From a virus (taxonomy: Duplodnaviria; Heunggongvirae; Uroviricota; Caudoviricetes): a stretch of 19,785 nucleotides of DNA. The stretch is taken from the IMG/VR virus record IMGVR_UViG_3300000301_000085; one strand, given 5' to 3'. Under the pieces are notes generated by a model. That model did no database searches. It saw nothing but the letters and a program-made list of their open reading frames with translations, and was not told where the DNA came from. Numbering within the stretch: the stretch's first letter is position 1; each line of letters opens with the position of its first letter. Below are positions 3,207-19,750 of this stretch, piece by piece. The position numbers were made by a program, and so were the translations under genes.

Positions 3207-3227
3207 AAAAATTCCTTTTGTTACTTA

Positions 3228-6805: not shown

Positions 6806-6838
6806 CTCTAAAACACACAGAGCGCGTCCATGCGCTCT
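6806..6838 (-). terminator. terminator-like hairpin plus U-tract in the leader just before the terS SD (possible attenuator)
   Basis: Plus-strand AGAGCGC-GTCCAT-GCGCTCT (6819-6838); the minus transcript reads hairpin then GUGUGUUUUAGAGGGAUCU-AUG. Confidence 0.45.
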
Positions 6839-6879
6839 AAAACAACTTGTTTACTGCATCTGCTAACCAACTTGTTTTC
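6839..6879. promoter_or_regulatory. two copies of the AACAAcTTGTT palindrome (operator-like) in the late-operon leader
   Basis: AAAACAACTTGTTTA at 6839-6853 and ACCAACTTGTTTTC at 6866-6879; same core as elements upstream of the small genes at 16.6-19.7 kb. Confidence 0.5.
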
Positions 6880-12909: not shown

Positions 12910-13440
12910 ATGGAGACACAAAAGCGTTCAGGGTGTTCACCAGCAATTCTGGTGACATCGACATTCTGCCAACAACTCTGTGATGACATGACAACCAAAG
13001 ATATTACCTACGGTATCCAAGCTGAACTCTGGCCGCGAGATTACACTAACGTTGAAAAANNNNNNNNNNNNNNNNNNNNNNNNNNNNNNNNNNNNNNNNN
13101 NNNNNNNNNNNNNNNNNNNNNNNNNNNNNNNNNNNNNNNNNNNNNNNNNNNNNNNNNNNNACAAATTCCTGTAAGGGTCACTCTCGAAGATGGCCAGGCG
13201 TTTTGCATGTACGTTTATGGCCTCATGCCATCTCGTAACAAAGTTGACCTTTGCCCAGCCCCTTTTGACAAAGAAAATCGTATAAGGCTCCCACTTGAAC
13301 GCATTAGTACAATTGAATCAGGTGTGGTTGANNNNNNNNNNNNNNNNNNNNNNNNNNNNNNNNNNNNNNNNNNNNNNNNNNNNNNNNNNNNNNNNNNNNN
13401 NNNNNNNNNNNNNNNNNNNNNNNNNTCAAAGGTCGACTAA
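12910..13440 (+). CDS. hypothetical protein(s); two masked segments, continuity unproven
   Basis: Open frame through masks 13060-13160 and 13332-13425; no recognisable motif; weak SD. Confidence 0.3.
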   Translation: METQKRSGCSPAILVTSTFCQQLCDDMTTKDITYGIQAELWPRDYTNVEKXXXXXXXXXXXXXXXXXXXXXXXXXXXXXXXXXXQIPVRVTLEDGQAFCMYVYGLMPSRNKVDLCPAPFDKENRIRLPLERISTIESGVVXXXXXXXXXXXXXXXXXXXXXXXXXXXXXXXXSKVD

Positions 13441-13539: not shown

Positions 13540-13668
13540 TGGCGGATGGCCGTGAAATTGAGGGGGTGTCAGCAGGCGCAGATGCTTGTCAGGTTACACT
13601 ACGTGTCGAGAACGGTAGAAAAATAGTTGTTTTGTTCGATTGGGTTGAACGAATTTTGCCTTTTTGAG
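13540..13668 (+). CDS. small hypothetical protein (42 aa)
   Basis: AAGGGTG SD; ATG 13540; stop 3 nt before the next start; below the ORF-track size cutoff. Confidence 0.3.
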
Positions 13669-14262: not shown

Positions 14263-14913
14263 ATGGCTAACATTATCATTTCTAAAAAATCCATCGTTGA
14301 AGCTGCTTCCATTGTATCCGATGAACTGCGCGAAAAAGCAGATCTGGCAACTCAAACATATAACGAACATTATAAAAATGGTACGCACACTAAAGCAGAC
14401 AAAGCAAATATGCAAGCTGCGACCACTAAACTTGCTTACTTCATCAACAACGTTGTAAACGCTGTAGAAGACGAAAAATTATGCTCTGTTTTCTACTATG
14501 CGATTAAAGCAAGCAAACAAGCGCCAGAAGTATTTTTCCGTGATGCAATGACTAATAGTTATTCTCTGGAAAAACTGGTTTATCTGGTTAAATCCATTAA
14601 AGCTGGCAAATGTGTTTATTCCGTCGCTGATATGTCAGGATCTCGTGTATTCGCTTTAATCGATATGATTAACGACGAGATCGACACGTTCACCAATGGC
14701 GCTGTTTTCGATTTAATGAATGAAGCTAAAAAAGCGTGTGAAATTAAATTGGACGCTGGCTATACTCAAGCCAACCAGTTGATCAATCTTTGCGAACGTC
14801 TTGGACTTGTTGAAAAAGTCAAAGGAGCTGGGAGCGCGAAAGCTGGTACTCAGCAATATCGCTTCATTAAAAATGATTTCTACAATTATTTAGCTGATGC
14901 TTTCAAAGCGTAA
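14263..14913 (+). CDS. hypothetical protein (216 aa), predicted to be highly expressed
   Basis: TAAGGAA SD 8 nt before ATG; AT-rich but uses host-preferred codons (GCT, GAA, AAA, ATC, TTC, CGT/CGC); no recognisable catalytic motif. Confidence 0.7.
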   Translation: MANIIISKKSIVEAASIVSDELREKADLATQTYNEHYKNGTHTKADKANMQAATTKLAYFINNVVNAVEDEKLCSVFYYAIKASKQAPEVFFRDAMTNSYSLEKLVYLVKSIKAGKCVYSVADMSGSRVFALIDMINDEIDTFTNGAVFDLMNEAKKACEIKLDAGYTQANQLINLCERLGLVEKVKGAGSAKAGTQQYRFIKNDFYNYLADAFKA

Positions 14914-15872: not shown

Positions 15873-15994
15873 GAAAGAAATCTGGATGTCTCAGGTGACG
15901 AAAGTCATCATAATTTTCCCCGCTCACCTGTCCGACAACCGCTGGTTGGATTCCACCAGCTTCCCGATGTTTTTTCTACATAAAGGCGAATGCA

Positions 15995-16108
15995 GCCGTT
16001 TCCCGAAAAAATCCTGGCCGTTTCCCGTCGGCTCATGAATACGTTCCTCGCCGTTTCTGAAAATTTCCCTGCGGCAGCTGGTGGCTATAGAGAAAGGGCC
16101 GTTTCTGG
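15995..16108. repeat. four direct copies of CCGTTTC(C/T) (iteron-like)
   Basis: Copies at 15995, 16018, 16051 and 16099, in noncoding DNA between convergent transcription units. Confidence 0.35.
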
Positions 16109-16111
16109 CCC
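16096..16111 (-). terminator. terminator-like hairpin after gene 16121..16603
   Basis: GGGCC-GTTTCT-GGCCC; the minus transcript continues UUUCUCUAUAG. Confidence 0.4.
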
Positions 16112-16120
16112 TATTCTCAG

Positions 16121-16603
16121 TTACACGCCATCAAGGATGTGGATGCGGTTGCTTGCGTATACATTCAGCATAAAGTTAGCGCAAAACAGTTTCCATGTGT
16201 CAACGCCAGCGGTATACGTAATGTTTTTGCATTTAATCGCATTGTTGGCGATCCGCATCCCCTGCGATACTGCTTCATCGTCGGAAAATTTGAACGACGA
16301 TTGAGTTTTAATCCAGACAGAAATCTGCGTAGCGAACTCAATCAGCTTGGACTGGCAGAATCGCCCGGAGCGCACCGGAAAGACGAACGTTCCGAACCCA
16401 GAATTTACCACATACGCTTTCTCAAATACCCGCGAGTAACGACGATTGCCAATGATGTCGCGTGCAATAATGCATTTTTCTTGTGCTGACAGTTCTACCG
16501 TCTCATTGTCGCGCCATGCACCAAGTACTCGTTTTTCAATGTCAGAGAACGTTACAGCGATATTGCCATGTGCGGGTGCGTTTACAGTAGCGATAAAATT
16601 CAT
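16121..16603 (-). CDS. hypothetical protein (160 aa)
   Basis: AAGGAA SD before ATG 16603; own promoter/operator element upstream. Confidence 0.6.
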   Translation of the reverse strand: MNFIATVNAPAHGNIAVTFSDIEKRVLGAWRDNETVELSAQEKCIIARDIIGNRRYSRVFEKAYVVNSGFGTFVFPVRSGRFCQSKLIEFATQISVWIKTQSSFKFSDDEAVSQGMRIANNAIKCKNITYTAGVDTWKLFCANFMLNVYASNRIHILDGV

Positions 16604-16675
16604 GATTAATTCCTTATCGTAAATAACAAATTGTTTTCTTGTTGGTGTTAATTATCGTTGTACGAATAAGGCGTC
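16604..16675 (-). promoter_or_regulatory. cassette promoter plus AACAAaTTGTT palindrome (element E1)
   Basis: Minus strand TTGACG...GATAAT then AAAACAATTTGTTAT then SD; about 35 nt near-identical to E2 and E5. Confidence 0.5.
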
Positions 16676-16780
16676 AAAGTGGAAAGTTGCGGTAGCCGGA
16701 CGGGAACAGGTGGGTTTGTCGGTTGCCTGGAGGTAAGAGGTTGGTGTTTTTAGCCTGCGGGAAACAGGATGGTCATTTAA

Positions 16781-16800
16781 GGCCACCAGCATTGGTGGCC
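16781..16800 (-). terminator. conserved GC-rich hairpin 8 nt after the stop (terminator-like, weak U-tract)
   Basis: GGCCACCA-GCAT-TGGTGGCC. Confidence 0.4.
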
Positions 16801-16807
16801 TTAATCT

Positions 16808-17089
16808 TTAGTGGAGCAGACCGATGTCGATGGTATCCCCTGAATCATCCACACGGATCATCAGCATGGCAAAGGCGTTTAGTGGATAGCTTGCGTGCCA
16901 TTCAGGGAAGCGGTCATCTCGCATGAAGTCGGCAATGTCGTAAACGCATCCCTCAAAGTGGAAGAATCGCGTGCTTACCTGCTCGTCATAATCCACATGA
17001 TCCATTTCTTGCTGTTCTGTTTCCGGCAAGTCCAGCCATGATTCAAGAAATACATTTTGTGCTTTAGGGGTAATGGTGAAATCAGTCAT
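16808..17089 (-). CDS. small strongly acidic protein (94 aa)
   Basis: GAGGA SD 7 nt before ATG 17089; about 20 D/E against 5 K/R (DLPETEQQEMDHVDYDEQ, RVDDSGDTIDIG). Confidence 0.55.
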   Translation of the reverse strand: MTDFTITPKAQNVFLESWLDLPETEQQEMDHVDYDEQVSTRFFHFEGCVYDIADFMRDDRFPEWHASYPLNAFAMLMIRVDDSGDTIDIGLLH

Positions 17090-17098
17090 GAGCATATC

Positions 17099-17165
17099 CT
17101 CACTGCGTAAACATGTTGTTTTCTTGTTGGTGTAATTATCGCAGTGTAGATAAAGCATAAAAGAA
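17099..17165 (-). promoter_or_regulatory. cassette promoter plus AACAtgTTGTT palindrome (element E2)
   Basis: Minus strand GATAAT then AAAACAACATGTTT then SD; flanked by inverted repeat CACTGCG/CGCAGTG. Confidence 0.5.
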
Positions 17166-17251
17166 GTTAATACAGGCTGAATACACAAGAAAGGTTCTGG
17201 AAGTTGATAGCAAGGTTTCAAACTAACCTTCGGTTATTAAAAGTCATTTAA

Positions 17252-17272
17252 GACCACCAATGCTGGTGGCCT
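17252..17272 (-). terminator. conserved GC-rich hairpin (inverted-orientation copy of the one at 16781)
   Basis: GACCACCA-ATGC-TGGTGGCC, 11 nt after stop 17283. Confidence 0.4.
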
Positions 17273-17282
17273 TAATAATTAT

Positions 17283-17426
17283 CGCCCGATTACGCTAAGG
17301 ATCTTTTCCTCAACTGATTTGTTGTTGCGACTAAACTGCCTTGCGTATCTGATGACAGAAGAGGCGTTTCGCTTTCTGACCATCTCGGCTCTCTCCTTCA
17401 GGCGTTTCTTGAAATCGCCCATATTT
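17283..17426 (-). CDS. tiny basic protein (47 aa)
   Basis: ATG 17426 lies 2 nt after the upstream stop (TAAATATG); MGDFKKRLKERAEMVRKRNASSVIRYARQFSRNNKSVEEKILSVIGR; below the ORF-track cutoff. Confidence 0.3.
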
Positions 17427-17799
17427 ACCACCAGGCGCAGAAGGTCAGTCTATTATTGTGAAAGTCGTGGTTCTTAATCAGATCTTCCACAAGCTCTTTC
17501 AACTCCCCCACATCATGCCAGTAACCTTCATCGTACTCCTGACTGCCGAAGAAAAAACCTTCCCGGGTAGGCAAGTACTCTTCGCAATTACTTTCGTTTA
17601 TGTGCATCAAATGAGCCTTCAGAAAACAAATGTCATTCATCGTTAATTCTAAAAGCTCACAATTTTCGACTTCACCTACGTTGCGCTCCATCCACCCAAC
17701 GAGCGCATTGAACTTACGGAAGTAAGCAACCTGCTTTCTGGATGCCTCGTTATTCAGATCGTTTTTAGGCTGTGTCTCGATATAGATATCAAGTCCCAT
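17425..17799 (-). CDS. small acidic protein (124 aa)
   Basis: AAGGAAACC SD before ATG 17799; E/D-rich. Confidence 0.55.
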   Translation of the reverse strand: MGLDIYIETQPKNDLNNEASRKQVAYFRKFNALVGWMERNVGEVENCELLELTMNDICFLKAHLMHINESNCEEYLPTREGFFFGSQEYDEGYWHDVGELKELVEDLIKNHDFHNNRLTFCAWW

Positions 17800-17849
17800 G
17801 ATGGTTTCCTTATTAAGTTGCTTCAGTGAAATCATTTTCACAAATCAGA

Positions 17850-17876
17850 TAAGGCAGAAAACAAATTGTTATCGGG
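17850..17876 (-). promoter_or_regulatory. AACAAaTTGTT palindrome upstream of gene 17425..17799
   Basis: Plus-strand AGAAAACAAATTGTTATCGG. Confidence 0.4.
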
Positions 17877-17884
17877 CATAAGAA

Positions 17885-17907
17885 AATGGCGCGGTTTACG
17901 CGCCATT
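17885..17907 (-). terminator. intrinsic terminator after gene 17917..18312
   Basis: AATGGCGCG-GTTTA-CGCGCCATT; the minus transcript continues UUUCUUAUG. Confidence 0.55.
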
Positions 17908-17916
17908 CAAAGAGGA

Positions 17917-18312
17917 TTAAGCGAATACGCTTTCAGGGATTAAGGTGTCAGCAGGAATGCCAGAGGTAATGCGCAGGCCGTACTGACCAATCCAGGTAGT
18001 GTTGGTATTCAGGCTGGAGGCGAATACGGTGTTAACCATATTCATCATGGTTTCAAACACCTCTTCATCAACCTGGCGGAAGTAGTTCTCGATTTTCAGC
18101 AGCAGCGGGTCAGTTGCATCGAAAATAGACTGGTATTGAGTCGCGTACTCGCCGCCGGAGGCATCACCTTTACGCACGATCGTACTGGCCTGGACTTCGG
18201 CACCAGTTTCGGTGTTGTACGTAACAACGGTGATTTTTGCCACATTCTTACCTTCGGCGGTTTCAGAGGCATAGTAAACATCAACTGTCAGTTTTTCGCG
18301 TTTAACGGTCAT
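17917..18312 (-). CDS. hypothetical protein (131 aa)
   Basis: GGAGAG SD before ATG 18312 (MTVKREKLTVDVYY...); own promoter; no palindrome element. Confidence 0.6.
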   Translation of the reverse strand: MTVKREKLTVDVYYASETAEGKNVAKITVVTYNTETGAEVQASTIVRKGDASGGEYATQYQSIFDATDPLLLKIENYFRQVDEEVFETMMNMVNTVFASSLNTNTTWIGQYGLRITSGIPADTLIPESVFA

Positions 18313-18345
18313 TTCACTCTCCGTAGTGTTTTGGTTATTTTTATA

Positions 18346-18374
18346 TTCTATGATCGTAAGTATGTACTTACAAT
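18346..18374 (-). promoter_or_regulatory. sigma70-type promoter for gene 17917..18312
   Basis: Minus strand -35 TTGTAA, 16-17-nt spacer, -10 TAGAAT. Confidence 0.5.
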
Positions 18375-18403
18375 ACAAAAAAGCCCCGTAAGGATGGCGG
18401 GGC
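18374..18403 (-). terminator. canonical intrinsic terminator after gene 18439..18750
   Basis: Minus strand GCCCCGCC-ATCCTTA-CGGGGC followed by TTTTTTG. Confidence 0.7.
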
Positions 18404-18438
18404 TGTCGTACGGTCGACTAATTACCACTTGCACATTA

Positions 18439-18750
18439 TCAGGCTATTGCCATCACTGATGCTCTCTGAATCTCTTGCTGGGCCACGCGGTTAACTTCCA
18501 TCAAAGCCAGTTCGAGCTGATGTTCCGGCCACATTCTTTGAAATGCCACCCAGCCTTTTCCACGCTGGCGACGAACATTCATTACATAACGAGTAAAGGT
18601 GTTTTTATCGAAAGACACCGCTGTTTCACGGAACAGACGAATAGAGGTTCCATTGGCAACGATGTCCAGCAAAGTTAATTGAGCAACCAGCGCAGGCTTC
18701 TCTTTTCTCTTCTGGTCTTTGTCCAGACCAAGAACCAATGATTTTTTCAT
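18439..18750 (-). CDS. small basic protein (104 aa), possible nucleic-acid binder
   Basis: GGAG SD before ATG 18750 (MKKSLVLGLDKDQKRKEK...); K/R-rich. Confidence 0.55.
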   Translation of the reverse strand: MKKSLVLGLDKDQKRKEKPALVAQLTLLDIVANGTSIRLFRETAVSFDKNTFTRYVMNVRRQRGKGWVAFQRMWPEHQLELALMEVNRVAQQEIQRASVMAIA

Positions 18751-18830
18751 CACAACTCCGTAAACAACTTGTTTTCTCAATGGCGTAAATAATACCAGTA
18801 AGAAAACGGCTACAAAGCATATTGATCAGG
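18751..18830 (-). promoter_or_regulatory. cassette promoter plus perfect AAACAAcTTGTTT palindrome (element E3)
   Basis: Minus strand TTTGTAGCCGTTTTCTTACTGG-TATTAT then AAAACAAGTTGTTT then SD; about 85% identical to E4 over ~60 nt. Confidence 0.5.
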
Positions 18831-18877
18831 TGCATGAGCGATATGCAGGTTCTTCCCTGCGGCTACAGATTAAGTTA

Positions 18878-18894
18878 AGCCAGCAATGCTGGCT
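18878..18894 (-). terminator. conserved hairpin after gene 18905..19234
   Basis: AGCCAGCA-A-TGCTGGCT, followed on the plus strand by TTGATTGTGATTACGC. Confidence 0.4.
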
Positions 18895-18904
18895 TTGATT
18901 GTGA

Positions 18905-19234
18905 TTACGCGAATACCTCAAGAAACTCCTGAACGTCCCAATGCTGGACGAGGTGAAGATAGACCTTAGAAATCACGTCATTTTCGCTATCGCATGTGAA
19001 GTAGTACTTCTGGCTGCGGTTGTATGTGTCCACACAAAATTCGCTCATATCCATAAAGTCAGCATCTTCACCCATGTCGCAAATCATCAAAGCAGGTGCG
19101 TCATCACGAGTCATCAGCTCAAGCACCCACCGCGAATTGATCAGAGTGGAAGACCAACCTTCTAACTCATAAAACTGATCAAACTCTTTTTGAGTTAATT
19201 TCTTGATTTGGTTGATGTCGATATTTGCAAACAT
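18905..19234 (-). CDS. small acidic protein (109 aa)
   Basis: AAGGA SD 7 nt before ATG 19234 (MFANIDINQIKK...); D/E-rich (MICDMGEDADFMDMSEF). Confidence 0.55.
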   Translation of the reverse strand: MFANIDINQIKKLTQKEFDQFYELEGWSSTLINSRWVLELMTRDDAPALMICDMGEDADFMDMSEFCVDTYNRSQKYYFTCDSENDVISKVYLHLVQHWDVQEFLEVFA

Positions 19235-19310
19235 AAAGCAATCCTTAAACAACTTGTTTTCTGAATTGCGTAAACAATACCAGTAAGAAAACGGCCACAA
19301 AGTATATCGT
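19235..19310 (-). promoter_or_regulatory. cassette promoter plus AAACAAcTTGTTT palindrome (element E4)
   Basis: Minus strand TTTGTGGCCGTTTTCTTACTGG-TATTGT then AAAACAAGTTGTTT overlapping the SD. Confidence 0.5.
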
Positions 19311-19349
19311 TACGGTGCTGCGCTGCCCCGGAGGTTAATAGCGACAAAA

Positions 19350-19366
19350 GCCACCGTGCTGGTGGC
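19350..19366 (-). terminator. conserved GC-rich hairpin after gene 19374..19670
   Basis: GCCACC-GTGCT-GGTGGC, 8 nt after the stop. Confidence 0.4.
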
Positions 19367-19373
19367 CTCACTC

Positions 19374-19670
19374 TTAATCTTCGTCGTCCGGGAACTCGCT
19401 GTGTACCGCGCCCACCAGCTCCCGCTTTTCATCTTCACTCAGCAGGTGCCAGATATNNNNNNNNNNNNNNNNNNNNNNNNNNNNNNNNNNNNNNNNNNNN
19501 NNNNNNNNNNNNNNNNNNNNNNNNNNNNNNNNNNNNNNNNNNNNNNNNNNNNNNNNTTCTGCCGGGACGAACGACCACAACTTGCGGTACAACTCCGGCC
19601 CCACTGCATCCAGACACTCAGCCAGGGAATCCACGCCCCACACCTCAACCGTCACAGGCATCTTAATCAT
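19374..19670 (-). CDS. small acidic protein (about 98 aa, middle masked 19457-19556)
   Basis: GAGGA SD before ATG 19670; acidic C-terminus EFPDDED. Confidence 0.5.
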   Translation of the reverse strand: MIKMPVTVEVWGVDSLAECLDAVGPELYRKLWSFVPAEXXXXXXXXXXXXXXXXXXXXXXXXXXXXXXXXXXIWHLLSEDEKRELVGAVHSEFPDDED

Positions 19671-19750
19671 CTCTTCATCCTCACTTCGTTTCTATAACGT
19701 CTAAATATGTTGTTTACTTGTTGGTGTTATTATCGAAATAAGACAAAGGC
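19671..19750 (-). promoter_or_regulatory. cassette promoter plus AAtAtgTTGTT palindrome variant (element E5)
   Basis: Plus-strand AAATATGTTGTTTACTTGTTGGTGTTATTATCG, near-identical to E1 and E2. Confidence 0.45.

Follow-up and report, generated by a model that had tools for sequence, protein, structure and literature searches.

A compact array of small genes occupies positions 16121–19670 of the window analysed here, a 19,785-nucleotide (nt) stretch of viral DNA (IMG/VR record IMGVR_UViG_3300000301_000085, Caudoviricetes). The array is 100% identical to Escherichia coli plasmid pTHO-010-2 (NZ_AP022542, 113 kb, IncFIB repA). Strain LF82 carries another close match, the SSU5-like phage-plasmid known as Escherichia phage Cyrano, at 99% identity. 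Relatives this close bear out the phage setting given in an original prediction for this DNA and, by sequence identity, the source of the window is an SSU5-like temperate phage-plasmid, a siphovirus. Part of the array region is shared by ~725 plasmid records from Klebsiella, Escherichia, Enterobacter, Yersinia and Salmonella. Here we describe the genes of the array, their control signals and their turnover; the most useful new items are a palindrome found genome-wide and the repeats that bound the cassette junctions.

Eight small genes in seven transcription units

We found eight minus-strand open reading frames (ORFs) between 16121 and 19670, in seven transcription units (E1, E2, E3+E3b, E4, E5, E6 and E7); a Shine-Dalgarno sequence, read directly, precedes all eight. 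Seven ORFs had been predicted, a number that holds for the units. The eighth ORF, E3b, belongs to E3’s unit: its ATG follows the E3 stop by four bases, and we therefore read the two genes as one unit. Ratios of nonsynonymous to synonymous substitution (dN/dS) against orthologues in SSU5, Klebsiella and other relatives were 0.03–0.20, reaching 0.48 in E4 (E1, 0.12–0.20; E2, 0.07–0.14; E3b, 0.03; E3, about 0.10; E4, 0.18–0.48; E5, 0.06–0.12; E7, 0.10–0.19). These values rule out spurious ORFs, and all eight are real genes under purifying selection.

E1 (16121–16603; all genes, promoters and terminators of the array lie on the minus strand) encodes a basic protein of 160 amino acids (isoelectric point (pI) 9.2; PHROG 1641, function unknown) and was found in every one of the 33 related loci extending into the E1 region. 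E2 (16808–17089; 93 amino acids, acidic, pI 4.1, net charge -15) lies in a 471-bp cassette missing from nine related loci. E3 (17425–17799; 124 amino acids, acidic, pI 4.7; PHROG 7971) and E3b (17279–17422; 47 amino acids, very basic, pI 11.3) share a 685-bp cassette that is missing from SSU5 and the Klebsiella relatives. E4 (17917–18312; 131 amino acids, acidic, pI 4.5; PHROG 2473) is the fastest-diverging cassette, with 30–62% amino-acid identity in divergent relatives and 92–100% in close E. coli ones. E5 (18439–18750; 103 amino acids, basic, pI 10.5) occurs in nearly all relatives. The 485-bp cassette of E6 (18905–19234; 109 amino acids, acidic, pI 4.2) is missing from SSU5-type relatives and that of E7 (19374–19670; acidic, pI 4.4; 72 amino acids in pTHO-010-2) from Cyrano. 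Acidic proteins are the majority, as predicted, with five acidic and three basic products in place of the four strongly acidic ones proposed.

Eleven masked runs of N, 81–118 bases each, interrupt the window, and one of them splits E7. This 100-N run (19457–19556) stands in place of just 22 nt of pTHO-010-2; if masking keeps length, E7 of the window has an in-frame 78-nt insertion and would encode 98 amino acids instead of 72. The array also extends beyond the window end. Three further small genes lie 1.5 kb on in pTHO-010-2, past a 1.5-kb stretch without an annotated gene; one has a DUF5983 match and another is annotated as DUF1380.

Promoters and terminators of the cassettes

Each unit had been credited with a promoter and Shine-Dalgarno site of its own, and sequence evidence supports both; promoters other than that of E4 were placed by a conserved -10 box and alignment across relatives. 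The E1 promoter (16622–16677) has a -35 box TTGACG, a -10 box GATAAT and the palindrome GAAAACAATTTGTTA at 16622–16638. An extended -10 box, TGcGATAAT, and the palindrome GAAAACAACATGTTT at 17107–17123 mark the E2 promoter (17107–17161), and GATAAT with a degenerate palindrome, GTAAACAACATATTT, marks that of E7 (19701–19735). The E5 and E6 promoter modules (18757–18833 and 19242–19318) are two copies of one 77-nt repeat, 87% identical over their length, each with a consensus palindrome (18762–18776 and 19247–19261). E3 has a promoter of a second type (17834–17873), in which the palindrome GATAACAATTTGTTTTC (17857–17873) covers the -35 region and is followed by TGTGAAAAT; it adjoins the E4 terminator directly, like the hairpin-palindrome-promoter composites found in relatives. 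The E4 promoter (18345–18373; TTGTAA-17-TAGAAT) is the only cassette promoter without the palindrome.

The E1, E2 and E7 promoters have a common block of 21–64 nt. E1 and E2 match at 90% over 21 nt (the equivalent cross-match to Cyrano is about 80% over 55 nt), E2 and E7 of pTHO-010-2 at 73% over 64 nt, and E7 of pTHO-010-2 and E2 of Cyrano at 91% over 34 nt. Promoter subfamilies, originally proposed at ~85% identity, do exist, E5/E6 being one; the groupings proposed could not be matched to those that we found.

All seven units, more than the five predicted, end in a hairpin 3–33 nt after the stop. One conserved hairpin type had also been described; near-identity is limited to the pair after E2 and E3b (28 nt, 96% complementary from one copy to the other). 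These two, TTAAGGCCACCAATGCTGGTGGCCTTAA after E2 (16777–16804) and its counterpart after E3b (17248–17275), form the two arms of the direct repeat at the borders of the E2 cassette. The hairpins after E6 (18877–18895) and E7 (19343–19369; GGCCACC-N5-GGTGGC, then TTTTG) partly resemble them, and those of E1 (16089–16112; GGGCC-N6-GGCCC, then a T-rich run), E4 (17878–17907) and E5 (18376–18405; a stem, then a T-run) are unrelated intrinsic terminators. Throughout the pTHO-010-2 genome, many terminator hairpins have AAGGC...GCCTT ends in common (for example AAGGCGTCC-N-GGACGCCTT at 3220, 4358 and 7955); in relatives, hairpins of this kind often run straight into the palindrome.

A palindrome common to array and core-gene promoters

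Six of the seven cassette promoters carry a 15–17-bp palindrome, GAAAACAA-N-TTGTTT, by the GATAAT -10 box. Its core, GAAAACAANTTGTTT, gave 14 strand-matches (8 sites) in the window against 0.48 expected, a count reached in none of 200 shuffles; the shared promoter core is not due to chance. Across the 113-kb pTHO-010-2 genome we located 19 sites with at most two mismatches, 18 of them intergenic, and nearly all point the same way as the gene that follows, 11–57 nt ahead of its start codon. Eleven of the 19 sites lie outside the array and its extension, at other promoters that include those of core genes. The palindrome precedes dnaB, an AAA ATPase gene, cobT, nrdB and a TerB gene, and occurs in two copies ahead of the DUF1380-annotated gene. 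Two more copies, 25 bp apart (6838–6879, minus strand), stand upstream of the gene for a 210-amino-acid ‘DNA-binding protein’ that precedes the large terminase gene.

Aligned sites have an invariant T 12 nt upstream of the palindrome, the last base of a GATAAT-like -10 box that in many cases has a TG extension; this would place the palindrome at roughly +6 to +20. In a second arrangement the palindrome covers the -35 region and is followed by TGnGATAAT or TGTGAAAAT. Some promoters carry both arrangements, with the two centres exactly 51 bp apart and the -10 box between them.

Orthologous promoters of SSU5, Klebsiella pJN2-26, PhiR41_1 and Cyrano retain the palindrome, as do those of a distant Klebsiella element in which core proteins have just 60–90% identity, and it persists where flanking DNA falls to 66–80% identity. 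Across nine diverse E1 promoters that we aligned, the -10 box never changed, nor did either half-site, and the central base varied freely, a pattern typical of a site read by a dimer. Of 79 exact matches sampled in IMG/VR, 66 were SSU5-like contigs. In the literature searched, no paper contained the palindrome string and none described regulation in SSU5-like phage-plasmids.

The cassettes had been proposed to be autonomously regulated. This claim fails for most of them: they look co-regulated because six of seven promoters share the palindrome with replication, nucleotide-metabolism and packaging-region genes. The distribution of the site points to one shared regulon to which the array cassettes would belong.

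Cassettes come and go at shared repeats

We compiled a presence/absence matrix of 37 loci, comprising 32 SSU5-like loci retrieved through an FljA-like gene near the array and five annotated relatives. E1 was always present, and E4 and E5 nearly always, with very divergent alleles. E2, E3+E3b, E6 and E7 were present or absent independently of one another, and loci with E2 and E3 together, E2 alone and E3 alone were all found. One locus (L023) is strikingly mosaic against pTHO-010-2, with 99% identity for E1–E3, 58–75% for E4–E5 and 96–99% for E6–E7.

All junctions for E2, E3+E3b, E6 and E7 fall inside a repeated hairpin or promoter. The E2 cassette lies between the two near-identical hairpins, with 33–34 nt shared at its junction (L001 17806 | 18244), that of E6 between the two 77-nt promoter repeats, with 62–75 nt shared, that of E3+E3b between two palindrome-bearing promoters, with 13–28 nt shared, and that of E7 between two palindrome copies. 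Duplication or shuffling of regulatory modules in front of unrelated genes, which had been suggested from the window, is well supported by these repeat-bounded insertions and deletions (indels).

Three IMG/VR contigs (L032, L033 and L035) differ downstream of E2, where E4–E7 were not found; the sequence of L033 and of L035 stops a short way past E2. In L032 the slot after E2 holds an IS200/IS605-type transposase, a 638-amino-acid SMC/SbcC-like ATPase, an SbcD-like phosphoesterase and a RuvC-like protein.

Lineage-specific proteins, mostly silent in the lysogen

No family had been named for these proteins, and searches left that unchanged. Ten array proteins compared with Pfam, PHROGs and PADLOC matched only PHROG families of unknown function, with the DUF5983 match confined to DNA outside the window; NCBIfam gave no match to the array proteins, nor did a PDB sequence search of E2 and E3. 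Homologues of E1, E2 and E5 were confined to SSU5-like elements. An E1 profile search returned 21 relatives, none informative, among 1.84 billion cluster representatives. Structure prediction, proposed as a way of spotting anti-defence folds, revealed none: the AlphaFold model of E1 was confident (predicted local distance difference test (pLDDT) 88, predicted template modelling score 0.77) and had no fold match in PDB or BFVD, and that of E2 (pLDDT 55) was not used. Characterised anti-defence families, Ocr and ArdA among them, thus showed no homology in the Pfam, PHROGs and PADLOC comparisons, the E2/E3 PDB sequence search or the E1 fold search. The alternative cassettes that fill equivalent slots in other phage-plasmids contained no Pfam domain, and a published DefenseFinder screen of the SSU5 group reported Rad only.

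Expression of the Cyrano orthologues is available from RNA sequencing (RNA-seq) of LF82 lysogens grown in lysogeny broth, in culture medium and in macrophages (PMC9928086, main text and S1 Table). CYRAN_105–108 and CYRAN_110, orthologues within E2–E6, were near prophage background, and the E1 orthologue CYRAN_111 was modestly above it (PMC9928086). Only CYRAN_109, the 47-amino-acid E3b, passed the authors’ cut-off for a moron, at about 6-fold above background (PMC9928086). The moron-type character first proposed for the region is therefore limited to E3b, and by that cut-off. Low lysogen expression fits lytic or establishment genes that are held off in the plasmid state, and does not fit morons. 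From their position and regulation, the host is the most likely target of the array proteins, during either lytic growth or establishment; an anti-defence role is a reasonable guess from context.

CYRAN_109 also reads about 10-fold above CYRAN_108 (E3), which lies directly upstream in the same unit. An internal promoter could account for this excess, as could a 3′ fragment that the strong hairpin keeps stable.

Candidate binders of the palindrome

The putative immunity control region, which separates the XRE-type repressor gene from a divergent 70-amino-acid ORF (pTHO-010-2 17148–17400, in locus L003), contains palindromes of another kind, GGTAAG-N2-CTTACC, which are probably the immunity operators. 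No copy of the GAAAACAA-N-TTGTTT palindrome was present in this control region, so the palindrome would be a second-tier control site and not an immunity operator. We rejected the immunity repressor as its binder: the repressor has its own region with different palindromes, and varies from 57 to 100% identity while the array palindrome stays constant.

An FljA-family gene (‘repressor of phase-1 flagellin’, PF03614) lies ~3 kb from the array on the plus strand (12910–13440, partly masked), with an unmasked copy at pTHO-010-2 73911–74435 (L004 23911–24435). The pTHO-010-2 protein matches PF03614 over its full length (E = 1.5e-84; 4.6e-31 for the masked copy of the window) and has a weak Hfq-like match at its C-terminus (E = 6.8e-4). 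The gene is found in about 835 SSU5-like plasmid records. A co-occurrence test is uninformative, as essentially all SSU5-like plasmids have the gene. The FljA-like protein is a weak candidate for the palindrome binder; its target may be flagellin mRNA of the host or genes of the element. Other candidates would be the ParB-like proteins, the 216-amino-acid hypothetical protein (14263–14913), E5 and the product of the gene that precedes the large terminase gene. On the plus strand, a palindrome copy at 13618–13632 falls within the 3′ end of the FljA-like gene; the next plus-strand ORF begins 38 nt further on.

Other features around the array

The array is flanked on one side by a plus-strand block, with genes for a UvsW-like helicase, the FljA-family protein and a hypothetical protein of 216 amino acids (14263–14913), and on the other by metG. 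Iteron-like direct repeats of the form (G/C)(A/G)G(A/G)AA(A/C)GG(C/T), such as GGGAAACGGC, lie at 15993–16107 (minus strand), and a second cluster lies past the window end (L001 20987–21106, equal to pTHO-010-2 80664–80783). Ten of the 13 genome copies fall in these two same-strand clusters, which bracket E1–E7; their spacing is often 22 bp, and they are kept in SSU5 and Cyrano. These repeats may serve as an origin, in partition or as some other array of protein-binding sites.

Also past the window end, ~0.9 kb without an annotated gene (L001 21170–22130, minus strand) is strongly A/C-rich on the gene strand. It contains internal 28-nt repeats at 90–113-bp spacing, is 66% conserved in SSU5, and has a possible promoter upstream (TTGACG-17-TTATAC) and a terminator-like hairpin at its end; a 44-nt piece of it resembles the E1–E2 spacer (about 16708–16751). 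Rfam had no match to this stretch, and Rfam and tRNA scans likewise gave none at gathering thresholds.

Interpretation

We think it probable, with some reserve, that this variable accessory region combines a palindrome-controlled regulon with repeat-mediated shuffling of cassettes in an SSU5-like phage-plasmid. It would be a hyperplastic accessory-gene region of seven short transcription units in a temperate phage-plasmid, in each of which a predicted sigma-70-type promoter and a Shine-Dalgarno site precede one or two small lineage-specific genes, with a terminator hairpin at the end. The palindrome would serve as the operator of a single genome-wide regulon, bound by a putative dimeric DNA-binding regulator. 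Distinct from the immunity repressor, this regulator would keep the array genes off in the plasmid-prophage state and then release them together. Because promoters and hairpins are repeated, homologous recombination between copies would move whole cassettes; by deleting, inserting and swapping them it would generate the observed mosaic.

Several points weigh against this account. The E4 promoter was the sole match among the cassette promoters in a strict sigma-70 scan, and the Cyrano RNA-seq covers lysogen cultures, not induction. Several loci probably inherited the same event, which leaves a handful of independent ones, and junctions between genes are expected anyway, with selection removing indels that break genes; the real argument is the shared repeat at each junction. 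The FljA-like protein is among the least conserved of the group (33–36% identity), at 36% in the distant element where the palindrome is unchanged. A host factor, or a role of the palindrome intrinsic to the promoter, may stand in place of an element-encoded regulator.

The original prediction would make each cassette an independently regulated early or moron gene whose product acts in anti-defence or host takeover, for example as a DNA mimic, a reading that we consider rather unlikely. Every unit does have a separate promoter and terminator, five of the proteins are acidic, CYRAN_109 was scored as a moron, and E4, the fastest-evolving gene, has a near-consensus sigma-70 promoter free of the palindrome. 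The DUF1380-annotated gene just past the window adds a further hint, as the DUF1380 gene of pO157 adjoins an anti-restriction gene (PMC11125564). Independence sits poorly with six of seven promoters sharing their palindrome with core lytic genes and with most orthologues being silent in the lysogen, and the protein searches lend anti-defence little help, with no match to known defence or anti-defence families, no known fold for E1 and an unusable model for E2. In another reading the palindrome is not an operator. It could be a promoter or leader element, a -35 surrogate joined to an A/C-rich translation-enhancing leader, or a site for a host protein conserved among enterobacteria, with the repeats being simply copies of one successful promoter. 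The identity of the palindrome across E. coli, Salmonella and Klebsiella hosts agrees with this, as do the TTGTTT half, usable as a TTG-type -35 box in second-type promoters, and isolated GAAAACAA half-sites in leaders of the distant Klebsiella element. We nevertheless judge it improbable: both halves are conserved and the central base alone varies, as is typical of dimer binding; paired sites are fixed at 51 bp; the palindrome is essentially confined to SSU5-like contigs in IMG/VR; and we know of no E. coli regulator with this consensus.

A further alternative has the palindrome act in RNA: where it follows the -10 box, it would form the mRNA 5′ end by the Shine-Dalgarno site and be bound by the FljA-family protein in the manner of a fliC leader. 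Salmonella FljA is said to bind the fliC leader, reportedly in work of Yamamoto and Kutsukake and of Aldridge et al., both in 2006. The near-universal FljA-like protein, with its full-length PF03614 domain and Hfq-like C-terminus, makes the idea attractive, and in our comparison with Salmonella and Citrobacter fliC leaders, the Salmonella leader shared CAAGTTGT with the palindrome just upstream of its Shine-Dalgarno site. Against a palindrome matrix built from 51 true sites, the fliC site scored -4.1, far from the 17–33 that true sites reach, a score equalled by 8.7% of random 80-nt windows; we discarded the resemblance as not significant. Second-type promoters place the palindrome upstream of the -10 box, where it would go untranscribed from that promoter, an RNA hairpin would be a weak A–U stem, and the FljA-like protein diverges to 36% identity with no change in the palindrome. 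Taken together, these points make recognition in RNA improbable.

The reading of a palindrome-controlled regulon with repeat-mediated cassette shuffling can be taken further. Possibly, although we hold this form of it only tentatively, the regulon is new and SSU5-group-wide, with an element-encoded non-immunity regulator that co-switches replication, packaging-region and accessory genes, and with operator-promoters and terminators that double as recombination sites. If so, the array would be a plug-in platform for the expression of new genes directed at the host, with anti-defence proteins of new fold, such as E1, maybe among the products, and the regulon would operate in hundreds of clinical Enterobacteriaceae plasmids, including relatives of Yersinia pestis pMT1. 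Clinical E. coli, Klebsiella, Salmonella, Shigella and Yersinia commonly harbour SSU5-like phage-plasmids, which carry resistance genes. One conserved control site at 19 promoters offers a direct experimental handle on a putative second-tier lytic or establishment switch, and the cassettes, as a compact and apparently co-regulated set of orphan genes under purifying selection, are reasonable candidates for host-takeover and anti-defence screens.

Comparison with known systems

The likeness to Salmonella FljA and fliC consists of the FljA-family gene in the window and of a palindrome just upstream of Shine-Dalgarno sites, similar in place to the fliC dyad; the two differ in that the sequences show no significant resemblance, and the link would be a putative one.

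Phage P1, with the scattered operators of C1, and plasmid RK2, with KorB and KorA, have dispersed-operator regulons. Like these, pTHO-010-2 has many copies of one short conserved site overlapping promoters of an extrachromosomal replicon, over the -35 region or the start, which would imply that operons otherwise separate are under central control. The array palindrome is unrelated in sequence to C1 or KorB operators and, as a putative operator, is symmetric and 15–17 bp long, in contrast to the asymmetric operators of C1.

Morons, as reportedly defined by Hendrix and Juhala, have their own promoter and terminator and are expressed from the prophage. The cassettes resemble them as single genes, each with a promoter on one side and a terminator on the other at the sequence level, that are set between conserved blocks. 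They differ in that most are not above background in the Cyrano lysogen and that their control site is common to lytic genes.

A close architectural parallel is with the promoter-early stem-loop (PeSL) cassettes of T4-type phages (Arbiol et al. 2010, PMC2839356; Comeau et al. 2014, PMC4122927). Both systems surround small orphan genes in a hyperplastic region with repeated sigma-70-type promoters and stem-loop terminators, which in the array are predicted from sequence. The array likewise varies across the 37 loci and encodes lineage-restricted proteins. The two differ in their setting, a temperate siphovirus phage-plasmid as opposed to a virulent T4-like myovirus, and in the additional palindrome of the array promoters, which core genes also use. 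Hairpin and promoter are interleaved in PeSLs and usually 30–150 nt apart in the array; they abut at the junction of E4 terminator and E3 promoter and at several sites in relatives, and are separated elsewhere in the array. In both systems, repeated regulatory sequences mark the limits of the indels and replacements that distinguish related genomes; in the array, 13–75 nt are shared at the E2, E3+E3b and E6 junctions. This cassette architecture would explain the turnover of the region, and would extend PeSL-type shuffling from virulent T4-like phages to a temperate plasmid prophage.

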